Source: Candidatus Stygibacter australis (GTDB lineage Bacteria; Cloacimonadota; Cloacimonadia; Cloacimonadales; TCS61). From it: a DNA stretch of 64,000 nucleotides. The notes under the pieces were generated by a model. That model searched no databases, had not been told where the DNA came from, and saw only the letters and a list, made by a program, of their open reading frames with translations. Location: NCBI GenBank assembly GCA_030765845.1, contig JAVCDJ010000203.1, positions 12,942 to 76,941 of the forward strand. The letters run 5' to 3'. Shown piece after piece: positions 21,368 through 64,000 of this stretch. Each line of letters opens with the position of its first letter. Position 1 is the stretch's first letter. The translations under genes were made by a program, and so were the position numbers.

Positions 21368-21392
21368 TGAGACGGCCCAGAAAAATCCCTAA

Positions 21393-21430
21393 TCCGGTAA
21401 AAATCAATAGTTTTTACCGGATTTTTTTTT
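21393..21430 (+). terminator. Intrinsic terminator, cassette 3
   Basis: Stem tccggtaaaaa / tttttaccgga with loop tcaatag, followed by a T9 run. Confidence 0.8.
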
Positions 21431-21562
21431 GGATAATATGCTGAAATAATATAGTATCTTAATGTGCTGCTGATGAAAAATATCTGAAATTTATTCAATG
21501 TTTATTGACTTATGCCATATAATTTATTCAATTTGCCTGATTAATTACGGAGGAAAAGAAAT

Positions 21563-24927: not shown

Positions 24928-25410
24928 ATGATGAACGAAGCAGGATTAAAAGCCCGGGAACTTGGCAGTGATTATTATTTGAAATATGGGATATGTTCGC
25001 AGTGCGTGATCGCATCTGTAATGGAAGTGATGGATATAGATCTGGGAGAATTGCTGAAATCAGCACATTTTCTGGCTGGAGGCGGCTGTCTGATGGGAGA
25101 TGGCAACTGTGGAGCCCTGGCAGCAGGAGAACTTGTATTGGGAGCTTTTCTGGGAAGGACACGGGAAGAATTTGAATTGGGTAAGTTTAAGGAACGTCTA
25201 TTGCCTGGAAAGCAGCTTGTGGAGAAATTTCAGCAGAAATACGGTGGTGTAAGCTGTAATTGGTTCAGGCAGAAGTTTGCTGGAAACGAATTTGATATGT
25301 GGCAGGATGCTCATGTTGATATATATAAGAAAAAGATGAAAGAATCCTGTGCAGAGATAACCGGGACAGTAGCTGAATGGGTTGTGGAGATCATTACTGA
25401 TCTGGAATAA
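24928..25410 (+). CDS. C_GCAxxG_C_C family redox-active protein
   Basis: 'CSQCV...GGGCLMGDGNCGALAAGELVLG...GGVSC' matches the C-GCAxxG-C-C signature. Confidence 0.75.
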   Translation: MMNEAGLKARELGSDYYLKYGICSQCVIASVMEVMDIDLGELLKSAHFLAGGGCLMGDGNCGALAAGELVLGAFLGRTREEFELGKFKERLLPGKQLVEKFQQKYGGVSCNWFRQKFAGNEFDMWQDAHVDIYKKKMKESCAEITGTVAEWVVEIITDLE

Positions 25411-42066: not shown

Positions 42067-42104
42067 TGTACGCTGGCGAACAGTGTTCTGTTCACAGGCG
42101 TACA
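42067..42104 (+). promoter_or_regulatory. Dual palindromic upstream activator sites for the adaptor/ABC/FtsX operon
   Basis: TGTACGCTGGCGAACA (42067-42082) matches the cassette-2 palindrome at 15 of 16 positions. TGTTCACAGGCGTACA lies at 42089-42104. The 22-bp offset is the same as in the cassettes. Confidence 0.6.
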
Positions 42105-42159: not shown

Positions 42160-42175
42160 TGGTACGCAAATTGCA
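42160..42175 (+). promoter_or_regulatory. Sigma-54 (-24/-12) promoter of the exporter operon
   Basis: TGGTACGcaaaTTGCA (GG-N10-GC spacing intact), 38 nt upstream of the ATG at 42213. Confidence 0.7.
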
Positions 42176-42212: not shown

Positions 42213-43466
42213 ATGGATAGAAAAATTGAGAAGAAGAAATGGACGACAAAGAAGATAATTCTGCTGGTTGTGGCAGTGGTAGTTATTGGCTTAGTGTTAT
42301 ACAGCGCAATCTGGGGAGATCATCGGAGTAAATTCAATGTTCAGACTGACCGTATAACTATTGAAGAAGTAGTGGAAGATTATTTTCAGGATTATATCAC
42401 AGTAACCGGTCGGGTGGTACCGAGCCGGACAGTTTATCTTGATGCCATGGAAGGTGGCAGGGTAGAAGAAGTGTTTTTGGAAGAAGGCTCATTAGTAGAA
42501 GAAGGTGATATAATATTGCGGTTAAGCAATGCGAATCTATATTTGAGCATAATGAACCGTGAAGCAGATCTGGCAGATCAGATCAATAATCTGCGTAGCA
42601 CACGATTATCTATGGAACAGAACAAACTGAGCCTGCGTCAGCAGCTTTTGGAAGTAAATTATCAGCTTGAGCAGCAGCAGCGAGATTATGCCCAGAAGCA
42701 GAAGCTATATGAGCAGGAATTCATTTCAGAAGAGGATTATTTACGCTCCCAGGAAGCATATCAATATTCTTTACAGCGTCAAAGTCTGGTGGTTGAGAGC
42801 CAGAAAACGGATTCCTTATTCCGGGCAATTCAGATCGAGCAGCTTGAGAATTCAGTTACCAATATGGAAGAGAATCTGGGCATGGTCCGAGATAAACTGG
42901 AGAATTTGAATGTACGCGCACCTATTAGTGGACAGCTTGTATCTTTGAATGCAGAGATAGGAGAAGCTAAATCCCAGGGACAGAGATTGGGTGAAATTAA
43001 TGTAGTAGGATCTTATAAGATCAATATGGATGTAGATGAGCATTATATTTCACGGATAAATCGAGATTTAATGGGTGAATTTGAATTTGCAGGAGGTACC
43101 TATCAATTAAAGGTAAGCAAGATCTATCCAGAAGTTCAGAACGGCAGGTTTAGTGTGGATCTGGAATTTTCTGGTGAAGAATACCCCGAGAATTTACGAA
43201 CGGGCCAGACTTTTAGAATTAAATTGGAATTAGGCGAATCGAGTATGGCACTATTATTACCTCGAGGTGGTTTTTATCAAAGTACTGGAGGGCAGTATGT
43301 GTTTGTGATCAATCCCGATGGCAAGAGTGCGGATCAGCGGGAGATAAGATTAGGCAGAATGAATCCGCGCTATTATGAAGTTCTGGAAGGACTGGAAGCT
43401 GGAGAAAGAGTTATCATATCAAGTTATACAAATTTTGGCAGAGCCGAAAAATTAATATTAAAATAA
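42213..43466 (+). CDS. HlyD/MacA-type periplasmic adaptor (membrane fusion protein)
   Basis: N-terminal TM anchor. Lipoyl-like 'VEEGDIILRL'. A long coiled-coil hairpin at aa ~110-225. 'VRAPISGQLVSLNAEIGE' and a C-terminal beta-barrel region. Confidence 0.85.
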   Translation: MDRKIEKKKWTTKKIILLVVAVVVIGLVLYSAIWGDHRSKFNVQTDRITIEEVVEDYFQDYITVTGRVVPSRTVYLDAMEGGRVEEVFLEEGSLVEEGDIILRLSNANLYLSIMNREADLADQINNLRSTRLSMEQNKLSLRQQLLEVNYQLEQQQRDYAQKQKLYEQEFISEEDYLRSQEAYQYSLQRQSLVVESQKTDSLFRAIQIEQLENSVTNMEENLGMVRDKLENLNVRAPISGQLVSLNAEIGEAKSQGQRLGEINVVGSYKINMDVDEHYISRINRDLMGEFEFAGGTYQLKVSKIYPEVQNGRFSVDLEFSGEEYPENLRTGQTFRIKLELGESSMALLLPRGGFYQSTGGQYVFVINPDGKSADQREIRLGRMNPRYYEVLEGLEAGERVIISSYTNFGRAEKLILK

Positions 43467-43479
43467 AACTGGAGGAACA

Positions 43480-44169
43480 ATGATCAAGACAAACAATTTA
43501 ATGAAGGTGTATCGTACAGACGAAGTGGAAACCCTGGCATTGAATAACGTGAATATTCACGTGGAAGCAGGAGAATTTGTGGCAATAATGGGACCCTCAG
43601 GTTGTGGGAAATCCACATTACTGAATGTGATCGGACTTTTGGATAATCCCACAGACGGTGAGTATTTCTTTAATAGTACCGATGTGGCAAAGTTCAAGGA
43701 ACGTCAGCGTACTAATATGCGTAAATCAAATGTAGGCTTTATCTTTCAGAGTTTTAATCTGATTGATGAGCTTACTGTTTATGAGAATGTGGAGCTGCCT
43801 TTATTATATCTTAAGATGGCGGCAAGTGAACGTAAGGCAAGAGTAAATGAGGTATTGGATAGAATGAAGATAGCTCATAGAGCCAAGCATTTTCCGCAGC
43901 AGCTTTCTGGTGGACAGCAGCAGCGCGTGGCAGTTGCCCGTGCCGTGATCACTAATCCCAAGCTGATACTTGCAGATGAGCCTACTGGAAATCTGGATAG
44001 TGCCAATGGAGAAGAAGTGATGGATATGCTTACACAGTTAAATGAAGCCGGAACTACCATTGTGATGGTAACTCACTCACCTACAGATGCAGAATATGCA
44101 CACCGGATCATCCAATTATTTGATGGTCACATAGTAACCGAGAATATCAAAAAAGAATTTCATTTATAA
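43480..44169 (+). CDS. ABC transporter ATP-binding protein (MacB/LolD-type), copy 1
   Basis: Walker A 'GPSGCGKST', signature '[14 protein letters not shown]', Walker B '[11 protein letters not shown]', H-loop 'VTHS'. Confidence 0.95.
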
Positions 44170-44204
44170 AAACCGATCGGGAGAGTAGAAATAAGGAGAA
44201 TCTA

Positions 44205-46625
44205 ATGTTCTGGAATTATCTCAAAATAGCAGTACGCAATTTAATGCGTAAGAAATTTTATACCATAATCAACATTGCCGGGCTGGCAATAGGGATTTGC
44301 TGTGCTATCATGATCGGGCTTTATGTACAGAATGAGCTTTCTTATGATAAGTATAACGAAGATTATGAGCGCATTTACCGGTTGGAATCACATTTCACGA
44401 TCAATGAAACGGATGATCTTTTTGCGGTAACAGCAATACCTTTGGCTCCGGCAATCAAGCTCGAATTTCCCGAAGATGTTGAGCAATATTGCCGTTACCG
44501 TGCTATGGACAACAATCTTTTTCAGATTGATAACAAGAAGTATTTTGAAGACAATGTTCACTATGCTGATTCTACGGTATTTGAGATATTTTCCTATGAA
44601 TTTTTACGCGGTGAACCATCAGAAGCGCTTGATGACCCCAATGAAATCGTGCTTACTGAAAGCTTTGCCAGACGCATTTTTGGTACACAAGATCCATTAG
44701 GCGAATATCTGGAGACAGGATACGGTTTTGGATTTACCGTTACGGGTGTGATCAAGGATCTGCCGCAAAACAGTCATTTGAACTTTGAGGCTCTTGCTTC
44801 CATGGTAACACTGGCTCAATTTTATGGAGCAGAAACATTTCACAGTCTGGATCCCAATCTTTTCTGGAATGTGGGATTTTACTCATTTATAAAACTAACA
44901 GAGGGCGGATCAATTGACAACATCATGCGAGGTTATCCTGCCTTTAATGAAAAATACATCAAAGCGTTAGGAGAAACCCTCAATGCCAAATTCCAGTTAA
45001 TGGCGCAGCGACTGGATAAAGTGCATTTGAATTCCAAACTGAAATATGAGCTACCTACCGGTAATATGGGGTATGTTTTTATCTTTGGCATTGTAGCACT
45101 TTTTCTATTATTGATAGGCTGCATAAACTACATGAATATGGCGACAGCGCAATCATCAGGACGTGCAACAGAAGTGGGAATCCGCAAAGTAGCAGGAGCG
45201 CAGAGAGGTTCATTGCAAATGCAATTCCTGCTGGAATCAGTAGTGATCAGCATATTTGCTTATGTGTTGGCAGTATTAGCAGTGGAATTGCTCTTGCCGA
45301 CATTTAATGAGCTTGCCGGAAGAGAACTCAGCTTAAACATTGGTGAAAACCTTAATTATTATGGGTTATTTCTGTTGGTGAGCGTAGTGGTGGGATTAGT
45401 ATCGGGTAGTTATCCAGCATTTTACCTATCATCGTTTGTACCCGTGGAAGTACTTAAAGGAAAATTGAGCAAGGGAAGTACAACCTTACGTAAGCTTTTG
45501 GTAGTAGTGCAATTTTCCATATCTATCATCATGATAATCTGTACTCTGGGAGTGGTAAGTCAGCTTAAATTCATGCAGAATACTGATCTGGGATTTGATA
45601 AAGATAATATAGTGGTTTTGACAATTAGAGATACAACGGGAGCCAGAAATCTGGCAACCTTTAGAGATGAGCTTTTGCAGCATCCGAAGATATTGAAAGC
45701 CGGCACATCATCAAGCATACCAGGTAGTGGATATGGTATCATTGTGCAGCGTTTTGAAACAGATGAAGGTGAGATGAGTGAGAAAGCCATCAACTTTGTG
45801 ATGGTTGATGAGAATTATCTGGATGTGATGGATATAAAGATACTATTGGGTAGAGAATTTGATCCTGAACTGGCAACCGATCTGGAAGAAGCCTGCCTGA
45901 TAAATCAAAGCTGTGCAGAAAATCTGGGCTGGGGTGAAAATGCCATTGGCAAGAAACTTGATTTCGGAGCCGCACCAGACGGAACAGCAACCAGAAATAC
46001 ACGCGTGATTGGAGTAGTGAAAGATTTTCATTACACATCTCTGCACAATCTGATTGATCCACTCATATTAATGCTTTCTGATGAGCCATTACAGACAATA
46101 ACGTTACGGATAGATCAAAGTGATCTGGAATCTACCCTGAGTTTTATGGAAGAGAAATGGAACGAATTTTGCCCGACATTTCCTTTCAGCTACGAATTTA
46201 TGGATGACAACCTGAGAGCACAATATGAAGCAGAAGAAAAGACCAGCCGTGTATTTAGTTATTTCACCATTATCTGCATTTTCATTGCCTGTCTGGGACT
46301 TCTGGGCTTAACAGCTTATGCCACGGAGCAAAGGATCAGAGAGATCAGCATCCGTAAAGTACTGGGTGCCACAGAGAAATCAATCGTATATCTGCTAACC
46401 AGCAATTTTGCCATCCTGGTGATAATTTCCAATGTAATAGCCTGGCCTGTTGCCTGGTGGGGAATGAAAAATTGGTTGGAGAATTTTGCCTATAGTACAA
46501 AACTTTCACCACTTATATATGTCGCAGCAGGATTGATAGCATTAATAATTGCCATATTGACAATAAGCATCAGAGCAATACATGCCGCAAGGACAAATCC
46601 GGCAGATGCTTTGAAATACGAATAG
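44205..46625 (+). CDS. Double-FtsX (MacB-like) ABC permease, paralogue 1
   Basis: 806 aa. N-terminus 'NYLKIAVRNLMRKKFYTIINIAGLAIG'. Two periplasmic domains are each followed by an FtsX 3-TM module ('EVGIRKVAGA', 'EISIRKVLGA'). C-terminus 'NPADALKYE'. Confidence 0.9.
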   Translation: MFWNYLKIAVRNLMRKKFYTIINIAGLAIGICCAIMIGLYVQNELSYDKYNEDYERIYRLESHFTINETDDLFAVTAIPLAPAIKLEFPEDVEQYCRYRAMDNNLFQIDNKKYFEDNVHYADSTVFEIFSYEFLRGEPSEALDDPNEIVLTESFARRIFGTQDPLGEYLETGYGFGFTVTGVIKDLPQNSHLNFEALASMVTLAQFYGAETFHSLDPNLFWNVGFYSFIKLTEGGSIDNIMRGYPAFNEKYIKALGETLNAKFQLMAQRLDKVHLNSKLKYELPTGNMGYVFIFGIVALFLLLIGCINYMNMATAQSSGRATEVGIRKVAGAQRGSLQMQFLLESVVISIFAYVLAVLAVELLLPTFNELAGRELSLNIGENLNYYGLFLLVSVVVGLVSGSYPAFYLSSFVPVEVLKGKLSKGSTTLRKLLVVVQFSISIIMIICTLGVVSQLKFMQNTDLGFDKDNIVVLTIRDTTGARNLATFRDELLQHPKILKAGTSSSIPGSGYGIIVQRFETDEGEMSEKAINFVMVDENYLDVMDIKILLGREFDPELATDLEEACLINQSCAENLGWGENAIGKKLDFGAAPDGTATRNTRVIGVVKDFHYTSLHNLIDPLILMLSDEPLQTITLRIDQSDLESTLSFMEEKWNEFCPTFPFSYEFMDDNLRAQYEAEEKTSRVFSYFTIICIFIACLGLLGLTAYATEQRIREISIRKVLGATEKSIVYLLTSNFAILVIISNVIAWPVAWWGMKNWLENFAYSTKLSPLIYVAAGLIALIIAILTISIRAIHAARTNPADALKYE

Positions 46626-46637
46626 GAATATAAAATC

Positions 46638-49070
46638 ATGATACTGAATTATCTAAAAATTGCTTACCGGAATATACTCCGTCAGAAGTTTTATTCACTG
46701 CTGAATATAGCGGGACTGGCTATCAGCATCACCTGTTGTATTTTGATCAGTCTTTATATTCAGGAAGAAGTATCATACGATAAATTTCAGCCAGGTGGAG
46801 AACGTATTTATCGTTTGGTTAACCGGAATAATATGGGGGGGAAGATCGATACTTACTGCAATGCCCCACGACCTATAACCCCTCAAATGAAAGAAATATA
46901 TCCAGAAATAGAAGCAGTAACACGGGTGAGGGGAGCAAATGGATTATACACTCATTCAGCAAATATCTCCTATGAGCAGAATCTGATAGCTTCAGAAAAG
47001 GTATATATTGTGGACTCGACTTTTTTTGATGTTTTTGCCACGGAATTTATTGCTGGTAACCCAAAGGATGGTTTAACCGGAGAAGTTGGAATACTCATCT
47101 CTGAGAGCCTGGCAAAGAAATTGTTTGGATCAGAAGAAGCATTGGGTAAAACCATGCTCTTAGATGAACAATTTCCGATAACTGTTAAAGCAGTATTCAA
47201 AGATCAGCCGGGACGGAGTCATTTTGAATATGAAGCTCTTTTACCCTGGAGGTTAGCTTATAGACAGGGAGAGGAAATTGCCTGGTATGGCTGGCAGGTA
47301 TATCATTATCTAAAATTGTATGAAGGTGCTGATGCAAAAGAGCTTCAGGCAAAATTCCCTCAATTTTTCACTGATTATATGAAAGAGAAATATGATACTC
47401 TGGATGGTACGTCAGAGCTGTCTCTGCAGCCTCTTAAAGATATTCATCTGAAATCAAATCTTATCTGGGAAATGGTTCCTAATGGCAATCTTAATAATTT
47501 ATATATTATGGCATCCATAGGATTATTCTTATTGATAATTGCCTGTATTAATTATGTGAATCTGGCAACAGCCAGATCAGTAAGGCGAGCCAGAGAAGTG
47601 GGGCTCAGGAAATTATTCGGTTCTCCACGAGGACTATTGATCCGCCAGTTTTTAGTGGAATCTATCATTTTATCATTGATTGCTTCTCTGGTTGCACTGG
47701 TCATTGCAGAATTATTATTACCAGTATTTAATAGTATTGCTGTACGGGACATCAGTTTAAATTTATTAAATAATCATGTTCTGATCCTGGGGATTATTGG
47801 ATTAGGAATATTTGTGGGACTTCTGGCAGGAATATATCCGGCATTAGTGTTGTCAAATTTTAGCATTGTGGAAGCAATAAAATCAAGATCAGAAAATGGC
47901 ACAGGTGGTATGGTGCTGCGTAAGATATTAATAGTTATGCAGTTTGCAATTTCAATCACCCTTATCATTTCCACTCTTATTTTGGTTGAGCAGATGAAAT
48001 TTGCCCGGGATATTGATATGGGGTTCAATAAGGAAAATGTGCTGGCAGTTACCGTGCGCGATACACTGGTAGCCAGGAATCTCCAAGTGATCAAACAGGA
48101 ACTCAGAGATAATCCTGAGATAATCTCAGCAGCTTGTTCATTAAATATGCCAGGCACTACTTTTAACCGTTTTCCAGCAACTATTGAAAATAATGAGGGA
48201 GGTTTTAGTCAGACGAGTTGCCAATTCATGCAGATAGATTATGATTTTATTCCCACGATGGATATGACTATAGTTGAAGGCAGAAACTATCAGCGTGATC
48301 AGGAAGAGAATCGTTTTTCAGTGATATTAGTAAATGAAGCTTTAGTGAGAAAATTTGGCTGGGATAACCCAATCGGAAAGCGTGTATTTCTTTATACAGA
48401 TAGCTTAGGCACTGCATTTTATCAGGAAGTGATTGGAGTAGTAAAAGATTTTCATCCCAATTCCGTGCGGCAGGAGATCAGTCCTATGATAATATATCTG
48501 ATCAATGATAATCTGGAAGCACGCAGCGGAGGAAATCTGAATCTGTTTATCCGTTTAAAAGGTGAGAATCTGCATCAGACAATGACTGATATCAAAGATA
48601 TCATTCAGCAATATAATCCTGATGATCCATTTCAGTATGTATTTCTGGATGAACATCTGAGCCGGATGTATGAAGGGGAAGAAAGATTGATCCAGCTTTT
48701 CAGTTATTTTACTATGATGATCATCTTTATAGCCTGTCTGGGATTATTTGGACTGGCATCATTCACGGCAGAAAAGCGAAGAAGAGAAATCGGTATTCGC
48801 AAAGTGCTGGGTGCCACTATCCGTCAGATAGTGCTTTTATTATCAACAGAATTTTCACGCTGGGTGCTATTGGCAAACGTAATCGCCTGGCCCCTTGCCT
48901 GGTATTTCATGAATAAATGGTTAGAGAATTTTGCCTACCACATCCAGATAACTCTTCTTAATTTCATCATCGCCGGTCTGGCAGCCTTAGTGATAGCATT
49001 ATTTACGGTAAGTTTTCAGGCATTAAGGGCAGCAATGAGCAATCCGATAAAATCAATCAGGTATGAGTAA
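46638..49070 (+). CDS. Double-FtsX (MacB-like) ABC permease, paralogue 2
   Basis: 810 aa with the same architecture. 'NYLKIAYRNILRQKFYSLLNIAGLAIS', 'EIGIRKVLGA', C-terminus 'NPIKSIRYE'. Confidence 0.9.
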   Translation: MILNYLKIAYRNILRQKFYSLLNIAGLAISITCCILISLYIQEEVSYDKFQPGGERIYRLVNRNNMGGKIDTYCNAPRPITPQMKEIYPEIEAVTRVRGANGLYTHSANISYEQNLIASEKVYIVDSTFFDVFATEFIAGNPKDGLTGEVGILISESLAKKLFGSEEALGKTMLLDEQFPITVKAVFKDQPGRSHFEYEALLPWRLAYRQGEEIAWYGWQVYHYLKLYEGADAKELQAKFPQFFTDYMKEKYDTLDGTSELSLQPLKDIHLKSNLIWEMVPNGNLNNLYIMASIGLFLLIIACINYVNLATARSVRRAREVGLRKLFGSPRGLLIRQFLVESIILSLIASLVALVIAELLLPVFNSIAVRDISLNLLNNHVLILGIIGLGIFVGLLAGIYPALVLSNFSIVEAIKSRSENGTGGMVLRKILIVMQFAISITLIISTLILVEQMKFARDIDMGFNKENVLAVTVRDTLVARNLQVIKQELRDNPEIISAACSLNMPGTTFNRFPATIENNEGGFSQTSCQFMQIDYDFIPTMDMTIVEGRNYQRDQEENRFSVILVNEALVRKFGWDNPIGKRVFLYTDSLGTAFYQEVIGVVKDFHPNSVRQEISPMIIYLINDNLEARSGGNLNLFIRLKGENLHQTMTDIKDIIQQYNPDDPFQYVFLDEHLSRMYEGEERLIQLFSYFTMMIIFIACLGLFGLASFTAEKRRREIGIRKVLGATIRQIVLLLSTEFSRWVLLANVIAWPLAWYFMNKWLENFAYHIQITLLNFIIAGLAALVIALFTVSFQALRAAMSNPIKSIRYE

Positions 49071-49084
49071 ATGAGGGAAATATT

Positions 49085-51457
49085 ATGATATTCAGTATAA
49101 TCAAGACAGCGATCAGGCATTTATATAAGAGAAAAGCGTTTTCTTTGATCAATATACTGGGACTGGCTATAGGAATGAGCTGCTGTATATTCATATTGCT
49201 CTGGGTGAGTGATGAGCTTAGTTATGACAGATTTCATCCTAATTTTGAGAATATCTATCGCGTGGCAGAAAATCAGAAACAGGGAGATGACCCCTTTCCT
49301 GTAGGTGTCACTCCTGCTCCCTTAGGTCCTGCAATGGTAGAAAGTTTTCCTGAGATAATTAACAGTGTGCGTATTCAATATGGCGTAAGCGGATTAATAA
49401 AATACGATGATAAATTGTTTCGTGAATCAGATATTATTCTTACCGATCCGTCATTTTTTGAGGTATTTAATTTTCCACTGTTGAAAGGTGATAAAAGTCA
49501 GGTGCTGGCAGAGAATAGCTCATTTGTGATCACTGAATCCATTGCCAAAAAGTATTTTGGAGACGAAGACCCCATTGGTAAAGTGTTAAATTTTAATAAT
49601 GCTATCGATCAAACAGTAACTGGTGTGATGGCAGATCCCCCTGCAAACACCCATCTTCAATTCGATATAATAGCTCCATTTAAAATTCTGGAACAGTTTG
49701 GTGCTGATCTTGAAACCAGTTGGGGCAGTAATTCATATATTACTTATGTGGAACTGGCAGATAAGGTGCCATATAAGGAATTGAACGCAAAAATTGAGGA
49801 TTTTCTATCTGAACATGATCCTGGATATTATGTGGAATTGCATTTGCAGCCACTTAAAGACATGCACTTGAAATCTAATTATACTGCAGACTGGAGTGGG
49901 CATGGCAGTGAGTTGTACGTTAAGATGTTTTCATTAATTGCTGTATTTATCCTGGTGATCGCCTGCATTAATTTCATGAATTTATCTACTGCCCAGTCAC
50001 CATTAAGAGCACGCGAGATTGGCATTAGAAAAGTTGCAGGTGCAAATCGCAGTTTGCTTATCTGGCAGTTTTTGGGTGAATCTTTGCTGATAGCGTTCCT
50101 GGCACTGTGTATTGGTATTGTCATAGTAGAAATTCTCCTGCCTTATTACAATACTTTTACCGGCAAGGAGATGAGCCTTGATCTTACGGGTAACTGGAGA
50201 TTATTAACTGGTATTATATTAATTGCTTTGATCACAGGATTTGTAGCTGGCAGTTATCCAGCTCTGGTATTATCAGGATTTAAGCCCGTACAGGTATTAA
50301 AAGGCAAAGTAAGCAGCAGTAAAGGTGGAGCGATATTTAGAAAGGTGTTAGTGATCTTTCAGTTCACACTTTCCATAGCTTTGATCTCAAGCACTATGAT
50401 AATATTTAAGCAGATAAATCTCATACGCAATATTGATCTGGGCTATAATAAAGATCAGATCATTAAAATAAATCAGAATACAAGTTTGAGACCCCAGTTT
50501 GAGGCATTTAAAGCAGAATTATTAAGTAACCCCAGGATAAAATCACTTACTACCTCCAGCGGACGACCTACAGATATTTATAACTCCGGGTATGGATTAA
50601 GTTGGGAAGGGATGCCGGATTCCGAAGATAGAAGACATCTAGTGCATACTCTTAATGTGGGTCCGGGTTTTTTTGAGACATTTGATATCAAGATCAAAGA
50701 AGGCAGAGCTTTTTCTAGTGAAATTACATCTGATACTTTGAATTATATCTGTAATAGTGAAGTGCTTAAGATAATCGGAAAAGATAATCCTCTGGGAATC
50801 GGGATATCATATTATCGTGAGGAAGAAGGGGAATTAATCGGAATAGTAGAAGATTTTCATTTTAAATCTTTGCACAGTAAAATAGAACCTTTAATAATCT
50901 CATTTGCAGATAAAAATGTACATGATCAGATATTCATCAGGATGCAGACAGGTGATATGGAAGCAACTTTATCTGATATAAAAACATTATGGGAAAAATA
51001 CAGTGATGATTATCCTTTTGAATACAGGTTCCTGGATGAATATTATGATCGATTATACAAGGCCGAATTCCGGATGAGCAAATTGTTCAACCTGTTTGCT
51101 GTCCTGGCAATTCTGATTTCCTGTCTGGGTCTCTTTGGGCTGGTTTCTTATACAACAACCTGCCGGATCAGGGAGATAGGTATCAGAAAAGTAATGGGAG
51201 CAAGCGTCGCGAACATTCTGGTGCTGCTATCAAGCAGATTCCTGATATTAGTTATATTCTCAAACCTTCTGGCAGGAGCACTTTCCTGGTATTATATGAC
51301 GAAATGGTTAGATAATTTTGCTTATAGAATAGATGCCGGGATATTGAATTTTATCTATGCTGGTCTAATTGCTCTGGGGGTTGCCTTGATCACTTTGAGC
51401 TGGCATACGCTTAAAGCAGCAAACGCTAATCCCATAAGATCATTAAGGTACGAGTAG
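49085..51457 (+). CDS. Double-FtsX (MacB-like) ABC permease, paralogue 3
   Basis: 790 aa. 'AIRHLYKRKAFSLINILGLAIG', 'EIGIRKVMGA', C-terminus 'NPIRSLRYE'. Confidence 0.9.
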   Translation: MIFSIIKTAIRHLYKRKAFSLINILGLAIGMSCCIFILLWVSDELSYDRFHPNFENIYRVAENQKQGDDPFPVGVTPAPLGPAMVESFPEIINSVRIQYGVSGLIKYDDKLFRESDIILTDPSFFEVFNFPLLKGDKSQVLAENSSFVITESIAKKYFGDEDPIGKVLNFNNAIDQTVTGVMADPPANTHLQFDIIAPFKILEQFGADLETSWGSNSYITYVELADKVPYKELNAKIEDFLSEHDPGYYVELHLQPLKDMHLKSNYTADWSGHGSELYVKMFSLIAVFILVIACINFMNLSTAQSPLRAREIGIRKVAGANRSLLIWQFLGESLLIAFLALCIGIVIVEILLPYYNTFTGKEMSLDLTGNWRLLTGIILIALITGFVAGSYPALVLSGFKPVQVLKGKVSSSKGGAIFRKVLVIFQFTLSIALISSTMIIFKQINLIRNIDLGYNKDQIIKINQNTSLRPQFEAFKAELLSNPRIKSLTTSSGRPTDIYNSGYGLSWEGMPDSEDRRHLVHTLNVGPGFFETFDIKIKEGRAFSSEITSDTLNYICNSEVLKIIGKDNPLGIGISYYREEEGELIGIVEDFHFKSLHSKIEPLIISFADKNVHDQIFIRMQTGDMEATLSDIKTLWEKYSDDYPFEYRFLDEYYDRLYKAEFRMSKLFNLFAVLAILISCLGLFGLVSYTTTCRIREIGIRKVMGASVANILVLLSSRFLILVIFSNLLAGALSWYYMTKWLDNFAYRIDAGILNFIYAGLIALGVALITLSWHTLKAANANPIRSLRYE

Positions 51458-51463
51458 GCAGCC

Positions 51464-53866: not shown

Positions 53867-53875
53867 GAGTGCATT

Positions 53876-56290: not shown

Positions 56291-56298
56291 AAATTATT

Positions 56299-58677
56299 AT
56301 GTTTAAGAAATACTTTTTACTTGCATTAAGGGGAATTTCCAGAAACAGGAGTTACTCCTTTATCAATATTCTGGGATTTGCTCTGGGACTTTATGTCTGC
56401 ATAATCATCAGTCTTTATGTTCTTGATGATCTCACCTTTGATCATCAATTTGAAGAACCGGAGAATATCTATAGAATAGTATCTAATGATAATTCCAAGG
56501 ACTGGATATCCGCTGTCACAGTGGGACCTTTATATGGGTTTCTGGAAGAAAACGTACCGGAAGTGGTGGCAGCAACGCGGATTGGACGCTATGGTGTACG
56601 CCTGCTCAGAAATGATATTGAACAACCAGATTCCATGGCAATTTTCCGTAGAGCATTACTCACCGATAGTGATTATTTCAGGGTATTTCGACCAGAAATT
56701 ATCAGTGGTGAGAAAGAAAATCCTCTCTCCGATCCTAATGCTGTATATCTTACAGAAGCTACTGCTGAAGCAATATATGGTGATGAAGATCCAGTTGGAA
56801 AGAGCATTGAGATCAGTTTTATAGAGAATGGCTATGTGGCTGGAATTGTAAAAGAGCCCCCTTTAAACACTCATATGCGGTACGGTGTAATAATTACAAT
56901 GGATCCTTCATTTAACCCGCTCTGGTGGGATTCATGGGAAAATCTCACCCTTACAGGATATGTGAGAGTGCAGGATAATATCGACGTTAAATCAATGGAA
57001 CAAAAAATCGTTGATGTAGCCAGGCAAAATGGGATGACCACTATGTTCACGCCAGTAATGCAGCCATTACTGGAGATGCATCTTAAATCTTCTGAACTGA
57101 GGTATGATGCCTTTAATCTGAATAAAAGTGATGCCTCTATCCCTTACAGCCTTATCATCATTGCAATCCTTGTTTTGATAGTTGCCTCCATAAATTTCAT
57201 CAATCTATCCACAGCAAAATCTTCTAATCGAGGTAAGGAAATAGGTGTCAGAAAGGTTCTTGGTGCTGATAAATTCCAATTATCAATGCAGTTTCTAACA
57301 GAATCAATCCTATATACAATTCTGGCAATGATCATAGCTCTGGGAGCCGTAGAAATCTCCTTATCATGGCTACAGCCATTCTTAAACAAACCTCTTGAAT
57401 TTAACATCATCCAGAATCCATTCACTATTCCTTTTGCAATGTTAGCAGCGATCTTTATTGGTGTAATTTCTGGTTTATATCCCTCAATGGTGTTATCATC
57501 ATTTAAGCCTATCAGTACTCTCAAAGGTGAATTTAAATCCGGTAAGAAGGGTATTGTCATGCGCCGGATTCTGGTTATCGGGCAATTTTCGATTTCTATT
57601 GCTTTAATCCTGGCAGTGCTCGTAGTTATTAGTCAATTAAAATATATGCAGAAAATCAATCTTGGTTATAATAAGGAAAGTGTTCTGGTAATCAGGACCC
57701 GGGACGTGAGAATTGATTTGGAATCAGATATATTCAAAGAGAGAGTGATGGAACTACCAGCAGTAAGCAATTCTGCCAGACTGCGTCAGCTGCCTGGTAA
57801 CACATTACCTACTGCTGAGGTATATTTTGATTATCGCACAGATGAAATTGGCATAATGACTGATGAGATATTTGTTGATGAGAATTTCATTGATGCGCTT
57901 GACGTGGATTTGATCACAGGTAGAAATTTTATCAGAGGATCTCAAGCTGACTCAGCATCTTCAATATTGATGAATGAAACTGCCTTTAAAATGACGGGCT
58001 GGGATAATATTGATGGTCATAAAATAATCTGGGTTCCCGCTGATGGTGTAGATGTGGAACTTAATGTAATTGGTGTGATCAAAGACATTCATCTTGGAGA
58101 AGCAAAAAATGTGATCGAACCCATGATCATTCATTATAACCCGCGAAGTGATTTCCTGTTGGTTCGCACAAATGACATTGAACTGGCAGCCTCTCAAATT
58201 GAATTAGTGTCCAATGAGTTTTTACCGGAACGTGATTTTGATTACTTCCCGCTTAATGATATATTTATGATGCAATTCAGGGAAGAAGACAGCTTTGCGC
58301 AGAAGATAGCAGTTTTTGCTATTATCGCAATTTTGATCGCCTGTCTGGGATTATTTGCCCTGGCAGCATTCATCACAGAAAAAAGAACCCGTGAAATTGG
58401 AATACGTAAGGTGCTTGGCTCTCCCATCTGGTCTATAGTTGTATTATTAACCAGTGATTTTATAAAATGGGTGCTGATCGCAAATCTGATCGCCTGGCCC
58501 CTTGCCTGGTATGCTATGAGTGCCTGGCTGCAGAATTTTGCCTATAGAACGCCATTGAATCCCCTCTTATTTGTTGTCGCGGGTTTCGCAGCGTTGATCA
58601 TTGCCATTATAACTGTAGGTTTTCATACTCTCAAAGCAGCAAACCAGAATCCAGCGAATATAATGAAATATGAATAG
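56299..58677 (+). CDS. Double-FtsX (MacB-like) ABC permease, paralogue 6
   Basis: 792 aa. 'LALRGISRNRSYSFINILGFALG', 'EIGIRKVLGS', C-terminus 'NPANIMKYE'. Confidence 0.9.
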   Translation: MFKKYFLLALRGISRNRSYSFINILGFALGLYVCIIISLYVLDDLTFDHQFEEPENIYRIVSNDNSKDWISAVTVGPLYGFLEENVPEVVAATRIGRYGVRLLRNDIEQPDSMAIFRRALLTDSDYFRVFRPEIISGEKENPLSDPNAVYLTEATAEAIYGDEDPVGKSIEISFIENGYVAGIVKEPPLNTHMRYGVIITMDPSFNPLWWDSWENLTLTGYVRVQDNIDVKSMEQKIVDVARQNGMTTMFTPVMQPLLEMHLKSSELRYDAFNLNKSDASIPYSLIIIAILVLIVASINFINLSTAKSSNRGKEIGVRKVLGADKFQLSMQFLTESILYTILAMIIALGAVEISLSWLQPFLNKPLEFNIIQNPFTIPFAMLAAIFIGVISGLYPSMVLSSFKPISTLKGEFKSGKKGIVMRRILVIGQFSISIALILAVLVVISQLKYMQKINLGYNKESVLVIRTRDVRIDLESDIFKERVMELPAVSNSARLRQLPGNTLPTAEVYFDYRTDEIGIMTDEIFVDENFIDALDVDLITGRNFIRGSQADSASSILMNETAFKMTGWDNIDGHKIIWVPADGVDVELNVIGVIKDIHLGEAKNVIEPMIIHYNPRSDFLLVRTNDIELAASQIELVSNEFLPERDFDYFPLNDIFMMQFREEDSFAQKIAVFAIIAILIACLGLFALAAFITEKRTREIGIRKVLGSPIWSIVVLLTSDFIKWVLIANLIAWPLAWYAMSAWLQNFAYRTPLNPLLFVVAGFAALIIAIITVGFHTLKAANQNPANIMKYE

Positions 58678-58685
58678 GAGATATA

Positions 58686-59351
58686 ATGCTTAAAATGCAG
58701 AAAGTTTTTAAATACTACGTTAATAAATACCGGCGTGAGTATATCCTCAGGGATATAGACCTGGAAGTGAAGCAGGGAGAATTTATAACTGTGATGGGAC
58801 CATCCGGGGCAGGAAAATCTACTTTGCTTTACCTTTTGGGAATGCTGGAATCTATTGATGAAGGTGAATACCTCTATAAGGATATTCCCATCCATTCCTA
58901 CAATGACAAAAAACGTACAGAGATCCATAAACACGAAATTGGCTTTGTATTTCAGCAATATCATCTGATAGACGAGCTCACAGTTTATGAAAATATTGAA
59001 ATTCCCCTCTTGTACCAAAAAGTGAAATCCGCTGAACGAAAAAGCCTGGTCTGTGATATCCTTGATAAATTCAATATTGTTGCTAAAAAAGACCTTTTCC
59101 CCAATCAGCTTTCTGGAGGACAGCAGCAATTGGTGGGTATCTGCCGGGCTATTATCGGGAAACCAGACCTGCTGCTGGCTGATGAACCTACCGGAAATCT
59201 CAATTCTGAGCAGGGTCTGGAAATTATGGAAGCATTAAAGAAGATGAACCAGCAAGGGACGACTATCATTCAAGTCACACATTCCCGTGAGAAAGCTGCT
59301 TTTGGTGATAGGATCATTAACCTTCTGGATGGCATGATCCAGCCAGATTAA
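58686..59351 (+). CDS. ABC transporter ATP-binding protein (MacB/LolD-type), copy 2
   Basis: Walker A 'GPSGAGKST', signature 'LSGGQQQLVGICRA', Walker B '[11 protein letters not shown]', 'VTHS'. Confidence 0.95.
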   Translation: MLKMQKVFKYYVNKYRREYILRDIDLEVKQGEFITVMGPSGAGKSTLLYLLGMLESIDEGEYLYKDIPIHSYNDKKRTEIHKHEIGFVFQQYHLIDELTVYENIEIPLLYQKVKSAERKSLVCDILDKFNIVAKKDLFPNQLSGGQQQLVGICRAIIGKPDLLLADEPTGNLNSEQGLEIMEALKKMNQQGTTIIQVTHSREKAAFGDRIINLLDGMIQPD

Positions 59352-59366
59352 TAGCTGGAGATAAAT

Positions 59367-61094
59367 ATGAAAAAGTATCTTGTGCTCGGATTGGTTATCA
59401 TGTTTTACCTATGCCTTTCTGCTCAGGATAATTTCCTGATTGTTGCTGATCAATACTGGGAGGACAATCCTTCTTTAAATGATTTCTGTGACTGGAAAAC
59501 GGAAAAGGGATTTGCTATTACCAGCCTTTTTTGTGAATCTGAAAGCACAATTGAAGAAATTGATTCCTGGGTTGAAGAACAGTATTTTCTTCTGGAGCCT
59601 GCTCCAAAGTTTCTTCTGCTGATTGGTGATGCCACTGGAGATTACAGCATTCCCACTCAGTCGGAAGGTTTGCCGAATGGTCCTGGAGATATCCATTCTG
59701 ACCTGATATATGGAGTAATTGGTGAAGTAACTGACCTTAATAGAATTCCTGATATTTATGTTGGCAGATTTCCTTGCAGCAATGGAATAGAATTATCTGC
59801 TCTGGTAAACAAAACTATCTGGTATGAAAAAGATCAGTACCTGAATGCTGCTGATCTCTCCTATCTGTCAAATGCTCTGGGGGTTTCCAATAATAGTCCA
59901 GATTATGCTGATCATCGGAATGCTGTGATCAATTATGGCTGGGACTGGTATTTTAACGATACATACTATAATCCCTATACTTATGAAACAAATGGAATAA
60001 ATGGCATCAGCATGTTGTATCCCCATGCGGATACTTTAGCATTGGTGCAGGATATAAAAAATGAAATTAATTCTGGAACTGGTTTTTATTACTATATAGG
60101 TAATTCTGATGCCTTTCGATTTAAGTATCCAGATTTCACAATTGCGGACCTGGAAGAATTGGATAACTATCAAAAATACCCAATTGTGATGGGTGGGGGC
60201 TGATGCTCGGCAACATTCCTTGAGAATGATTGCTTCGGTGAAGCATTTATTAATCTGCCTGATAAAGGTGGTGTTGCCTATATAGGTAACACCACCAGAA
60301 CTTATCTAAATGTAAACTGGAAAATAGCTACCGGGAATAATGATCCCTTCCTGCCCCTTACTCCAGATCAAATGGGACTTTTTGATGCCCTGATGCACCC
60401 GGAATATGATAATCTGGGTAGGATCATTAATGAAATGCGTCATGCTGTAGAAGGAGTCAATGGTATTGATGAAAGCCTTAAAACGAGACATATTTATTCG
60501 CTTACGCTGCTTGGTGATCCTTCTTTGACGCCATGTCTGGGTATTCCACAGGAGCTGGATGTACAATATAACTATTTCATTGACCAAAGCTTATTTTTTG
60601 ATCTTACTACAGAGCCTAATGCCCTTTTTGCTCTATCAGACAGTGAAGGGAATCTGATTTATGCAGAAAAGGCTGATGCGAATGGCTCAGGATTTGTTAT
60701 ACTGGAAGATTTCAATGAAAATTTTCTCAGGTTGACGATCACTGCCAAAAACAGGATACCCTACTTTGCAAATATTTATCTTACTCATAATGATAGCAGC
60801 AATATTGCTCCTGCTTCCACTCGCTGCTGTAATTATCCTAATCCCTTTAATCAATCAACCACTATCTACCGGATGAATGAGCATACCAGGCGTCAGGAAA
60901 ACGACAAAATTCATTATCAGATATTTAACCTGAAGTGTGAAAAAGTTAATGAGTTCTGGCTTTCAGACAGCAAACCGGAATACTGCTGGGATGCCAGAAA
61001 TGAGCAGGGAGAAATCCTCCCATCCGGCATTTACCTGATCAAGGCAGATGATCATGAAAATGAAACTGCTGGAAAACTGCTTTTACTAAAATGA
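59367..61094 (+). pseudogene. C25 (gingipain-like) peptidase homologue with T9SS-type CTD, interrupted by one in-frame TGA (60201-60203)
   Basis: ORFs 59367-60203 and 60372-61094 are in the same frame (offset 1005 = 335 codons). The 168 nt between them read through as 'CSATFLENDCFGEAFINLPDKGGVAYIGNTTRTY...'. This is collinear with 'CLTGYF...ECFVEQWFRNPDGGAVGAVGSTRISY' of the C25 protein at 2-4219. Signal peptide at the N-terminus; CTD 'YPNPFNQSTTIY...GIYLIKAD...KLLLLK'. Confidence 0.6.
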
Positions 61095-61107
61095 TCTGGA
61101 GCAGATT

Positions 61108-63441
61108 ATGCTGAAAAATTATTTGAAGATAGCTTTAAGACATTTGCAGAAACATAAGGGATATTCTTTGATCAATATTCTGGGTCTGGCTCTGGGTATG
61201 ACAGTTAGTCTCCTGCTGTTGCTCTGGGTCCAAGATGAACTGCTGTTTGATAAATTCCATCAGGATATTGAAAATATTTACCAGATTTCCATGTATGATG
61301 AGCAAAGTGCTTCTCCTTCCGGAGGTAGAACTATACCCCTCAAAATGGTACCAGTTCTAAGAGATAATTATCCCGAGATAAAAAATGCAGCCCGGTATCG
61401 GTTTTTTAATAATCTTGCACTTAATTATAACGACAAAGATTTTAATGAAAGTAACGTGATGGCGACGGAGCCAAATTTCTTTGAGATGTTTGATGTGGAG
61501 TTTATCAGAGGAGATGCCGCAACTGCGTTGTCTGATCCCAGTTCTATTATTCTCACCAGCAGTTCTGCACATAAAATTTTTGGTAATGAATCTCCTATGG
61601 GAAAAGCTATCATAGTCAATAATGACAGTCCCTTTACTGTTACAGGGATCATTAAAGATTTTCCTGTTCAATCAAGCTTGAATATTGATTATATCATTTC
61701 TTTTGCTGTGATGGGTGAAAGAGCTGATACCTGGAGCTGGGAATGCTCCGGCTTTGTGCAATTGTATCCTAATACTGATTATGAAAAATTTGCACCAAAG
61801 ATCAAAACTGCTCTGGTTGATCATAGCCCCAGGGAGATAGATCAGGATATGCTCTACCTGCAACTATTTAGTCATGTGCATCTCTATTCCCCCTTAGATA
61901 CTCCAGACGGTTTGATTATGGTTTATGTTCTTAGTGGCATAGCAATCCTCATTCTCCTCATTGCCTGTATCAATTTTATGAACCTGGCAAATGCCCGTTA
62001 TGCCCTGCGCACCAAAGAAATTGGTGTAAGGAAAATAATGGGGGCTCAGAGGAAACAGATCATAATGCAGTTCCTCTCAGAATCAATGTTAATCACCTGT
62101 ATTGCCATGCTTCTTTCTATCGCCCTGGTTGAACTCCTATTGCCTCAATTCAATCTATTAACTGCCAAAAATACCTCCATTACTATCTCAAATCTCCTAT
62201 TCATCATTGGCTTTCCTCTAATTGTGCTATTTACAGGGATTTTTGCCGGAACATATCCTGCCTTTTTCCTCTCATCTTATTCACCTGTTCAGATCTTCTG
62301 TCATAAATTCAGCTCGGATTCCATGAAATCTTTCCGTAAATTACTGGTAGTTTTCCAATTCACGATCTCCATTATTCTCATTATTCTATCTTTTGCAATT
62401 TATCAGCAAATCAATTATATCAATAAAAAAGACCTGGGTATTAATACAGATTATGTGATTCATCTGCCTATGCGAAATGAACAATATCAAAAGTATGATA
62501 CTATCAAAGAAGAACTGCTCAAAAATAGAAATGTATTGGCTGTAACCACTTCCACTTCTCTTCCCTCACAAGTGGGAAACGTAAACCCCGTCACCTGGGA
62601 AGGAAAACCAAATGACGATAGAGTGATTTTTCGCTTCTATAACACTGATAATGATTTCTTTAAGCTCTTTCAGATTCCATTTGTTGCCGGTAATGGTTTT
62701 ACTCTGGATAAAGCAGTTCATCCGGAAATTGAATACGTGGTTAATGAAACTGCGGTCAAATTAATGGAAATGAAAGACCCGATTGGTAAAAAATTCAGCA
62801 TGTTCGGCCATGATGGTTATATAGTGGGAGTTATCAAGGATTTCCATAATACCTCACTTTCAGGGGAAATAAGACCTCTTCTCATCTCGCAGCTTAGTTG
62901 GTTCAGAAGTATTATCATGATCAGAATTGCTCCTGAAGATATGAATTCCACCATTAAATACATCGAAAATTCCATGGCTGAAACCTGTCCCGGCTTCCCC
63001 TTCTCATACACTTTTCTGGATGAAAGTATTGCCAGAATGTATTATGATACCAGACGTACTCATTCTATTATTTTATATTTCACTTGCCTGGCTGTTTTTA
63101 TCTCCTGCCTGGGATTATTTGGTTTGTCATCTTTTATGACAGAAAGACGTGCCAAAGAGATCAGTATCAGAAAGATCTTAGGCTCGAGTACTAATAACCT
63201 CATATTCCAACTCACCAGCAGTTTCCTTCGCTGGGTGGCTATCGCAGCCATTATTGCTATTCCAGTTGCCATGTATCTGGCAAATCTCTTCCTAAAGCAA
63301 TTCGTCTATCACTATGATCTTACTATCCTTGATTTTGTGATCCCAATTGCTTTGCAATTCCTGCTGGCTGTTGTCACAGTTGGCTATCAAACTCTTCGGG
63401 CTGCACACTCGAATCCCGCTGATATATTAAAATACGAGTAG
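61108..63441 (+). CDS. Double-FtsX (MacB-like) ABC permease, paralogue 7
   Basis: 777 aa. 'NYLKIALRHLQKHKGYSLINILGLALG', 'EISIRKILGS', C-terminus 'NPADILKYE'. Confidence 0.9.
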   Translation: MLKNYLKIALRHLQKHKGYSLINILGLALGMTVSLLLLLWVQDELLFDKFHQDIENIYQISMYDEQSASPSGGRTIPLKMVPVLRDNYPEIKNAARYRFFNNLALNYNDKDFNESNVMATEPNFFEMFDVEFIRGDAATALSDPSSIILTSSSAHKIFGNESPMGKAIIVNNDSPFTVTGIIKDFPVQSSLNIDYIISFAVMGERADTWSWECSGFVQLYPNTDYEKFAPKIKTALVDHSPREIDQDMLYLQLFSHVHLYSPLDTPDGLIMVYVLSGIAILILLIACINFMNLANARYALRTKEIGVRKIMGAQRKQIIMQFLSESMLITCIAMLLSIALVELLLPQFNLLTAKNTSITISNLLFIIGFPLIVLFTGIFAGTYPAFFLSSYSPVQIFCHKFSSDSMKSFRKLLVVFQFTISIILIILSFAIYQQINYINKKDLGINTDYVIHLPMRNEQYQKYDTIKEELLKNRNVLAVTTSTSLPSQVGNVNPVTWEGKPNDDRVIFRFYNTDNDFFKLFQIPFVAGNGFTLDKAVHPEIEYVVNETAVKLMEMKDPIGKKFSMFGHDGYIVGVIKDFHNTSLSGEIRPLLISQLSWFRSIIMIRIAPEDMNSTIKYIENSMAETCPGFPFSYTFLDESIARMYYDTRRTHSIILYFTCLAVFISCLGLFGLSSFMTERRAKEISIRKILGSSTNNLIFQLTSSFLRWVAIAAIIAIPVAMYLANLFLKQFVYHYDLTILDFVIPIALQFLLAVVTVGYQTLRAAHSNPADILKYE

Positions 63442-63451
63442 AGGTTATAAA

Positions 63452-64000
63452 ATGTTAGTAAATTATTTACGTATCGCATTCAGAAATATCTGGAGGCAGA
63501 AAACATATTCTGCCATAAATATCGGTGGCTTTGCCATTGGCCTGGCTGTATGTCTGATCATTTCATTTTATGTGATTGATGATCTCACTTATGATCATTT
63601 CCACAAAGATGCCGAAAATATCTATCACCTGCTGACAGTTGATAATTCTGAGGATGAAGGAGCTCTCAGTTATTCAATTACAGCCGGACCTCTTGTTGCA
63701 GGTATGGCAGATGCTGTTCCAGAAATCATAGCTGCCACGCGAATCACCGCAATGGGAATAAATCTACCTTTGCCGGGAAATGAAAATGAGACTGATGAAG
63801 AAACTACGATCGCTGCCAGAGTTCTTTTGGCAGACAGCAGTTTTTTTGATGTTTTCAGTTTTGAAATACTTGCTTCTGACCAGAATCATCCGCTAAGTGA
63901 TCTTAGAGGTGTCTATATATCTGAATCTTTTGCTGAAATGCTGTATCCTGAAGGTGACGCTGTGGGAAAACCTCTCGTTAACCCTCAAATGGAAGATGCT
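63452..64000 (+). CDS. Double-FtsX (MacB-like) ABC permease, paralogue 8 (3' end beyond window)
   Basis: It is absent from the ORF track because no stop is reached. The ATG at 63452 lies 10 nt after the previous stop. It translates 'MLVNYLRIAFRNIWRQKTYSAINIGGFAIGLAVCLIISFYVIDDLTYDHFHKDAENIYHL...', the family N-terminal signature, and is open to nt 64000. Confidence 0.85.
   Translation, partial: MLVNYLRIAFRNIWRQKTYSAINIGGFAIGLAVCLIISFYVIDDLTYDHFHKDAENIYHLLTVDNSEDEGALSYSITAGPLVAGMADAVPEIIAATRITAMGINLPLPGNENETDEETTIAARVLLADSSFFDVFSFEILASDQNHPLSDLRGVYISESFAEMLYPEGDAVGKPLVNPQMEDA

Follow-up and report, generated by a model that had tools for sequence, protein, structure and literature searches.

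The stretch of DNA described here, hereafter the window, comprises 64,000 nt of contig JAVCDJ010000203.1 from the uncultured Candidatus Stygibacter australis, a representative of a Cloacimonadota genus from Ace Lake, Antarctica, in whose description the locus is unmentioned (PMC8542988). From position 42213 to the window's end runs a series of co-directional genes, separated by intergenic gaps of 6-35 nt in the open reading frame (ORF) listing, in which genes for large duplicated permeases of the MacB/FtsX type predominate. Coordinates are positions in the window and all genes of this array lie on the forward (+) strand. The series begins with a gene for a HlyD-type periplasmic adaptor, or membrane fusion protein (417 aa; 42213-43466; Pfam HlyD_3 and HlyD_D23), followed by ATP-binding cassette (ABC) ATPase-1 (229 aa; 43480-44169; ABC_tran) and by six permeases recognised with Pfam, namely P1 (806 aa; 44205-46625), P2 (810 aa; 46638-49070), P3 (790 aa; 49085-51457), P4 (800 aa; 51464-53866), P5 (804 aa; 53876-56290) and P6 (792 aa; 56299-58677). 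These are followed by ABC ATPase-2 (221 aa; 58686-59351; ABC_tran), a Peptidase_C25 gene of 575 codons with an in-frame TGA (59367-61094; C25 profile over the read-through), permease P7 (777 aa; 61108-63441; Pfam) and the N-terminal 182 codons of permease P8 (63452-64000). A first-pass annotation of the sequence had described this same arrangement of adaptor, ATPase, six permeases, second ATPase, C25-like gene and further permeases with short gaps, and all of the genes were found at the positions it had given.

The first-pass annotation had also proposed that the operon continues past the window edge, and it was possible to follow it to its end on ENA contig ERZ27315495 k141_452396 (L001), which is 100% identical to the window across a 12,893-nt overlap with the window's last part and whose coordinates are used from there on (window position = L001 position + 51107). 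L001 completes P8 (796 aa; L001 12345-14735) and adds permease P9 (803 aa; L001 14746-17157), an 89-aa ORF directly after the last permease (L001 17198-17467, or roughly 68305-68574 on the scale of the window), the OEP (TolC-like) gene (414 aa; L001 17484-18728), which is the last of the operon, and a strong intrinsic terminator (L001 18789-18809) 61 nt 3' of it. The whole operon is approximately 27.7 kb long and has 15 genes, including nine permeases and an outer-membrane factor, so that of the ratio of eight permeases to two ATPases to one adaptor counted earlier the latter two numbers stand, while the first has to be raised to nine. Terminator-like sites inside the operon were not above chance (18 compared to 12.8 +/- 3.6), and an Rfam scan of 41000-64000 gave nothing meaningful.

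Pfam found MacB_PCD plus FtsX twice in each permease, and hydropathy analysis gave eight transmembrane (TM) helices and two periplasmic domains. When P1 was modelled with AlphaFold2 from a 44-sequence alignment (predicted local distance difference test score, pLDDT, 83.7; predicted template modelling score, pTM, 0.75), the model had the layout already seen by hydropathy, with coupling helices after TM2 and TM6 (317-329 and 711-719) and a short C-terminal helix. The three sequence motifs previously quoted as common to the permeases were all found in the paralogue alignment, although in the model the EIGIRKVLGA motif, which had been taken for a linker, forms the cytoplasmic coupling helix that follows TM6. 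The best full-length Foldseek match of P1 was E. coli YbbP (9GE6/9GE7, E 5e-19), and the next fold matches were MacB, a pneumococcal homologue, a Porphyromonas periplasmic domain, LolCDE, BceAB and HrtBA. Orthologues of P1 are found throughout the Cloacimonadota with 57-77% identity and a length of about 806 aa (805-808). The permeases have the two FtsX-type four-helix units, each with a large periplasmic domain, that define the Type VII ABC systems (MacB/FtsX/LolCE), canonical ATPases are encoded alongside them, and the coupling helices expected of such systems are predicted by the P1 model and are among the most conserved segments.

Among NCBIfam models, P1, P2, P6 and P7 were nearest to ADOP (TIGR03434), with 230-313 bits against a cutoff of 622.3, and then to DarB, with 125-177 bits against 700. 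ADOP proteins are defined, in the TIGRFAM description, as orphan permeases without an adjacent ABC ATPase gene. The permeases of the operon share with them the duplicated architecture of about 800 aa with two FtsX units, and the tandem arrangement of such double permeases resembles that of the Psychroflexus torquis GI-43 cluster, but the four scanned score below the ADOP cutoff and none is an orphan, as the operon holds two ATPases together with an adaptor and an outer-membrane factor.

The adaptor found its best NCBIfam model in DarC, over its full length (206 bits, cutoff 450), and matched the structures of MacA and MexC. The best model for ATPase-1 was DarD (287 bits, cutoff 375), with both ATPases scoring 248-287 bits. 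An adaptor and a TolC-like factor are encoded in the same operon as the permeases, as in tripartite pumps. ATPase-1 and ATPase-2 are 47% identical and the Walker A, Walker B, LSGGQ signature and H-loop motifs are intact in both, which ruled out an ATPase heterodimer with a degenerate site. Orthologues of both ATPases (76% identity for ATPase-1 and 61% for ATPase-2) were found in a locus of a distant Cloacimonadota member (L083) with the order adaptor, ATPase-1, permease, small protein, permease, ATPase-2. The first-pass annotation had seen in the mid-operon position of ATPase-2 a sign that two modules had fused; this idea did not survive, as there is one adaptor at the start and one outer-membrane factor at the end, and the presence of both ATPases in the two-permease version in L083 shows the two-ATPase layout to be ancestral.

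The same data bear on how the ATPases would pair. They might form an obligate heterodimer, with one subunit per half of the asymmetric fused permease, instead of each serving the permease block that follows it. The joint presence of both orthologues in the minimal operon of L083 agrees with this, as do the strong conservation of each ATPase at 47% mutual identity and the unequal conservation of the two permease coupling helices (48% compared to 68% mean identity among the paralogues). We nevertheless regard the heterodimer as doubtful, given that both ATPases have complete catalytic motifs with no degenerate site, that a single ATPase lies within 10 kb in several arrays elsewhere and that YbbAP uses a homodimer (PMC12646458).

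Three characterised systems were compared with the operon as a whole. MacAB-TolC of E. coli similarly combines an adaptor, a permease of the FtsX fold that bears a periplasmic core domain (PCD), an ABC ATPase and a TolC-like duct, and the MacB and MacA structures were matched by both sequence and fold, but MacB forms a homodimer in which each 4-TM subunit carries its own fused ATPase, whereas in the operon the permease units are fused, the ATPases are separate and there are nine permeases. YbbAP-TesA of E. coli (PDB 9GE6-9GE8) likewise has its two permease units fused into one protein with two periplasmic domains and its ATPase separate, with two ATPases for each fused permease (PMC12646458). 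It differs in that YbbP has ten TM helices, of which two are linkers (PMC12646458), whereas the operon permeases are direct 4+4 fusions of 8 TM helices without linker helices and only 13% identical to YbbP, and in that YbbAP partners a hydrolase and lacks an adaptor or outer-membrane factor. DarBCD (NF038008, NF038010, NF038007), a tripartite ABC trans-envelope exporter of darobactin (PMC8442675), provides the best named models for the adaptor and both ATPases and has the same duplicated permease architecture of about 780 aa; all scores were below the equivalog cutoffs (DarB 700, DarC 450 and DarD 375 bits), however, and there are nine permeases here compared to one.

Upstream of the operon, a sigma-54 (-24/-12) promoter sequence, TGGTACGCAAATTGCA, lies on the + strand at 42160..42175, 37 nt 5' of the adaptor start codon. 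The pattern TGGYAC-N5-TTGCW, which has the canonical GG-N10-GC spacing, matched 4 times in the window where 0.13 matches were expected. Two adjacent palindromes of the form TGTWCGC-TG-GCGWACA (42067..42104, +) are situated 56-93 nt upstream of the operon's promoter; this palindrome has five distinct sites in the window compared to 0.05 expected matches, and all five precede sigma-54 promoter matches, 55-95 nt upstream of them. The operon thus has both the GG-N10-GC elements and the upstream palindromes of a sigma-54-dependent promoter, and the palindrome may serve as the upstream activator site of a sigma-54 enhancer-binding protein. This palindrome and a sigma-54-like promoter are also present in L083, where they separate the adaptor gene from a divergent response-regulator gene whose product has Sigma54_activat and HTH_8 domains, and it is likely, judging from this arrangement, that the L083 regulator represents the type of activator that acts on the operon of the window. 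This regulator gene stands with genes for a histidine kinase and a SpoIIE phosphatase (L083 708-4912, -), divergent from the two-permease operon. We predict from these elements that the operon would be transcribed as a single inducible unit. A gene for a fusion protein with response-regulator, PAS, SpoIIE phosphatase and HATPase_c_2 domains lies 2.7 kb upstream of the operon (37521-39542, -); it is 27% identical to the SpoIIE gene of L083 and we make no claim for it as a regulator of the operon.

The nine paralogues are 25-44% identical in pairwise comparisons, with P4 the most divergent. Mean identity among them was 27% in either periplasmic domain compared to 35-46% in the TM helices, and the most conserved segments were coupling helix 1 (48%), coupling helix 2 (68%) and the C-terminal helix (54%). 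The first-pass annotation had read the divergence of the periplasmic domains as diversification of recognition modules on a common engine. That these domains are more diverged than the TM segments was borne out, but the implied hypervariability was not: when 198 full-length homologues from 77 loci were fitted to the paralogue alignment, the ratio of PCD to TM identity was 0.65-0.67 for the window array compared to 0.62-0.63 for pairs from different genomes at equal overall identity, which is the norm of the family. A syntenic array in a metagenome-assembled genome (MAG) of a related Cloacimonadota species (L004; 83% nucleotide identity, synonymous divergence, dS, of 0.5-1.3) allowed the ratio of nonsynonymous to synonymous substitution (dN/dS) to be calculated. 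For the permeases this was 0.08-0.13 (P2 0.114, P3 0.099, P4 0.129, P5 0.077, P6 0.085, P7 0.076), with values by domain of 0.10-0.11 (periplasmic) and 0.06-0.105 (membrane), and for ATPase-2 it was 0.036. These values indicate that all copies are maintained by purifying selection, as is every gene of the operon. As judged from the alignments, the periplasmic domains are old and different yet not hypervariable, and their profile is a family-wide constraint. In addition, for each paralogue there are homologues in Bacteroidota, KSB1, Calditrichia or Ignavibacteria that are at least as close to it as the neighbouring permeases are, so that the array is made up of ancient family members and did not arise by local or recent amplification.

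Comparison with close relatives showed that individual permeases are gained and lost and that gene content varies among them. In L004, P1-P8 are present but P9 is absent (L004 19542-19560). In another relative (L003, 1-940) the end of P5 is joined directly to ATPase-2, and ATPase-2 directly to P7, such that P6 and the C25 gene are absent, and the junction is a mosaic with 87-90% identity on one side and 99.9% on the other. In L085, a strain that is 99.86% identical, P3 is interrupted by a nonsense codon at residue 55 (L085 12873-13040). Such differences in copy content between close relatives, and the premature stop in P3 in one strain, are what would be seen if the array were redundant, partly decaying duplicated DNA without distinct functions. 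This explanation appears very improbable to us and is largely refuted by the dN/dS of 0.08-0.13 for each copy against a species at dS 0.5-1.3; the paralogues are also as old as inter-phylum splits (25-44% identity) and all reading frames in the window are intact. Decay, which the first-pass annotation had considered as a possible objection to functional diversification, is therefore absent in the long term, with single copies lost or broken in individual strains.

Taken together, we lean, with limited confidence, towards the reading that this is one sigma-54-dependent operon encoding a tripartite, envelope-spanning efflux system of Type VII (MacB class), in which nine alternative permeases would share the adaptor, the TolC-like duct and the ATPases. 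Each permease would be a fused pseudo-dimer of 8 TM helices with two FtsX units and two unlike periplasmic domains, and would form a complete transporter with two ATPase subunits. On the pattern of MacB, LolCDE and YbbAP, the binding and hydrolysis of ATP on the cytoplasmic side would be relayed by the coupling and stalk helices to the periplasmic domains, which may capture substrates from the periplasm or from the inner membrane's outer leaflet and drive them outwards into the adaptor and outer-membrane duct. Nine old and conserved pairs of periplasmic domains could in this way give nine substrate ranges to one engine and one duct. The sharing of ATPases among alternative permeases had been suggested in the first-pass annotation and we rate it plausible, as the segments predicted to dock the ATPase are the most conserved among the paralogues (48-68%); a shared engine is also made plausible by the fact that nine permeases come with a single adaptor and a single outer-membrane factor, and by the plug-in manner in which genes are gained and lost.

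Several points weigh against this reading of a shared tripartite pump. To our knowledge, no Type VII system with a fused permease has been structurally shown docking an adaptor, and YbbAP works with TesA instead. An adaptor gene lies within 10 kb in only some arrays of the FCB group (Fibrobacteres, Chlorobi and Bacteroidetes), so dependence on the adaptor may not hold for every paralogue. The two conserved ATPases of the two-permease L083 operon could mean that a heterodimer is used and not shared homodimers. With regard to regulation, no sigma-54 activator gene is present in the window and most other arrays do not have the sigma-54 pattern, with the strict pattern in 1 of 80 related loci, meaning that sigma-54 control is not general in such arrays or that the starts of their operons were uncaptured. 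There is also the strongly conserved 89-aa protein to which no role is assigned and for which the AlphaFold2 model was poor (pLDDT 57.6).

This 89-aa protein has no Pfam match and is predicted to be cytoplasmic; like P1, it is identical to an NCBI protein from the MAG of Candidatus Stygibacter australis. It has 521 homologues, the closest 120 of which are 63-93% identical to it, and every named source is a MAG of the Cloacimonadota or the FCB group. It was found inside such arrays in all three contexts examined (the window operon, L081/L082 and L083/L084), and its dN/dS of 0.022 against L004 is the lowest in the operon.

Elsewhere in the window, at 19835-21460 (+), there are three tandem units with spacings of 519 and 681 nt, each consisting of a TGTWCGCTGGCGWACA palindrome, a perfect sigma-54 promoter (at 19984, 20503 and 21184), two tiny ORFs and a terminator. 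The tiny ORFs encode the basic peptides MKKMKKSILARWNERKARFGGTR and MKHTKLVSKWNERRNRYVGRR, each led by a Shine-Dalgarno sequence, and the differences between copies of the second are mostly synonymous. A search for these WNER tiny peptides across all loci retrieved here found them only in the window, and an Rfam scan of 19700-21600 gave nothing meaningful. From their common motifs, the tandem units and the operon probably share one sigma-54 regulon. One could then suppose that the operon is dedicated, similarly to DarBCD, to the export of these co-regulated tiny cationic peptides (20.0-21.4 kb) or of another product made by the cell itself, or to immunity against it, since the operon and the three two-peptide units have this palindrome and a sigma-54 promoter in front of them in common, and since the adaptor and ATPases score best against DarC and DarD. 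We consider this improbable, as the peptides have no signal or leader sequence while MacB-type pumps take periplasmic substrates, the peptide units lie at a distance of 21 kb, every Dar score falls under its cutoff and nine permeases would be excessive for a single product. There is also no radical S-adenosylmethionine (SAM) gene or other maturation gene nearby; when the ORFs of the window and the genes downstream of the operon were scanned with Pfam, neither a radical-SAM gene nor a precursor of a ribosomally made peptide with post-translational modifications (RiPP) was found.

The C25 gene between ATPase-2 and P7 is unusual in that its two parts, the ORFs 59367-60203 and 60372-61094, are in the same frame with one TGA (60201-60203) between them. 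The first-pass annotation had recognised a C25-like gene but had overlooked the second ORF (240 aa), which is its in-frame continuation past the TGA. The read-through protein has 575 residues, comprising a signal peptide, a C25 domain (2-373 of the 374 profile positions) and a C-terminal sorting domain of the type IX secretion system (T9SS), and the full C25 profile is recovered only with read-through of the TGA. As well as matching the full-length C25 profile, the protein could be aligned with the gingipain Kgp (4RBM) through the active-site region, and it shares the T9SS C-terminal domain of the gingipains Kgp and RgpB. It differs from them in having no propeptide domain, in the TGA codon, probably for selenocysteine (Sec), at the nucleophile and in an Asn at the position of the catalytic His. 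The TGA aligns with the second Cys of the NCC motif of Kgp, which we take to be the catalytic Cys477, and with a Cys in the sequences P0001 and P0003 and in the C25 paralogue encoded elsewhere in the window (71-4219). A metagenome scan for C25 relatives gave a sole locus, L091, with a 62%-identical homologue, and the TGA is conserved both there and in L004. The Asn is likewise found in the window, L004 and L091, and the His-Cys dyad of an active C25 peptidase is thus absent from all three.

Several features suggest that the TGA is read as a codon. In the 56 codons from the TGA to the next ATG there were 23 differences from L004, 19 of the 23 at third positions, and the dN/dS of 0.072 indicates that this region is translated. 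A SECIS-like (selenocysteine insertion sequence) hairpin with a GGU loop lies at 60224..60250 (+), its loop starting 33 nt after the TGA, and there were no substitutions between the window and L004 from +7 to +47 after the TGA despite a dS of 0.67. In bSECISearch the SECIS loop is expected 16-37 nt past the UGA. In L091 the TGA, the Asn, the hairpin (with a U.U mismatch replaced by an A-U pair) and the following P7-like gene are all kept. The hairpin matched no Rfam family. Genome-wide reassignment of TGA was ruled out because TGA ends 7 of the 39 genes of the window and the ORFs are otherwise intact. P0002 and P0004 were not used as truncated Sec homologues, as their tails read as out-of-frame sequence. 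No tRNA-Sec, SelA, SelB or SelD gene was found in the 64-kb window; a Cloacimonetes-type tRNA-Sec has been described (PMC5330540). With a UGA at the position of the homologues' Cys, continued translation and a downstream stem-loop, the C25 gene is a strong candidate for a selenoprotein gene with Sec at the nucleophile position. Our literature search found no report of a selenoprotein of the C25 family, and this probable selenocysteine homologue of the gingipains, passed over in the first-pass annotation, is the most novel element of the locus. If true, the bacterial selenoproteome would gain a new family in a secreted gingipain-like Sec protein, and the question would arise of what role a Sec/Asn active site has at the cell surface. 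The Cys-containing paralogue in the same genome, at 71-4219 (+), is a C25 peptidase of 1382 aa with a propeptide, a catalytic domain with an ordinary Cys and a T9SS sorting domain.

The proximity of the C25 gene to P7 also raises the idea that some or all of the permeases are mechanotransducers or extractors for periplasmic partners, as in FtsEX-EnvC, LolCDE-LolA and YbbAP-TesA, with P7, for example, acting on the C25-like protein. The best fold match is indeed YbbP, a hydrolase-partnered extractor, the C25 gene directly precedes the P7 orthologue in L004, as does its homologue the P7-like gene in L091, and the Psychroflexus torquis ADOP cluster holds a thioesterase gene (PMC3914696). Such partnerships seem unlikely when it is considered that an adaptor gene at the start and a TolC-like factor at the end are the hallmark of an efflux duct, that the T9SS sorting domain would destine the C25 protein for the cell surface, and that L003 keeps P7 without the C25 gene.

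A wider proposal than the tripartite pump alone would combine a plug-in efflux machine, having a common engine and duct (adaptor, TolC-like factor, ATPase pair and 89-aa protein), interchangeable fused permeases gained, lost and swapped between strains, and a sigma-54 activator that also controls the tiny cationic peptides, with the first Sec member of the C25 family, in which Sec is the nucleophile and Asn replaces His. We put this forward tentatively, and with all of its parts joined it is less likely to hold than to fail.

Arrays of this type are widespread. At least four full-length permease genes lay within 10 kb in 29 of 77 related loci, and the hosts include Mucilaginibacter, Adhaeribacter, Cytophagia, Cyclobacteriaceae and KSB1. 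In Psychroflexus torquis the 42-kb GI-43 cluster, where eight to ten ADOP paralogues stand in tandem beside other transporter genes, was reported to be highly translated (PMC3914696), and Dyadobacter genomes have 28-33 copies (PMC11573002). It had been stated previously that such arrays are present in FCB genomes and are functionally uncharacterised, and this agrees both with the many loci matched here and with our literature searches, which found no functional study of such permease arrays. Duplicated MacB-like permeases in arrays are among the largest unexplained paralogue families of the genomes of the FCB group and Acidobacteria. The operon is ordinary in kind for the FCB group but is an unusually complete and tractable example, and its compactness together with the natural variants that have lost single permeases makes the question of a shared engine and duct concretely testable. 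The analysis also corrects the attractive but unsupported idea of periplasmic hypervariability.

Separate from the array, a single-unit permease of 408 aa with MacB_PCD and FtsX is encoded at 23701-25410 (+), followed directly by a C_GCAxxG_C_C redox-protein gene. At 9479-18161 (-), a zinc phospholipase C-like gene stands between two very large ORFs, of 1279 aa (AAA_16, TPR) and 1309 aa (no clear family). A TetR gene and then two genes for metalloproteases of the PmbA/TldD family (L001 19070-22334, -) converge on the operon's end and have a strong terminator of their own.

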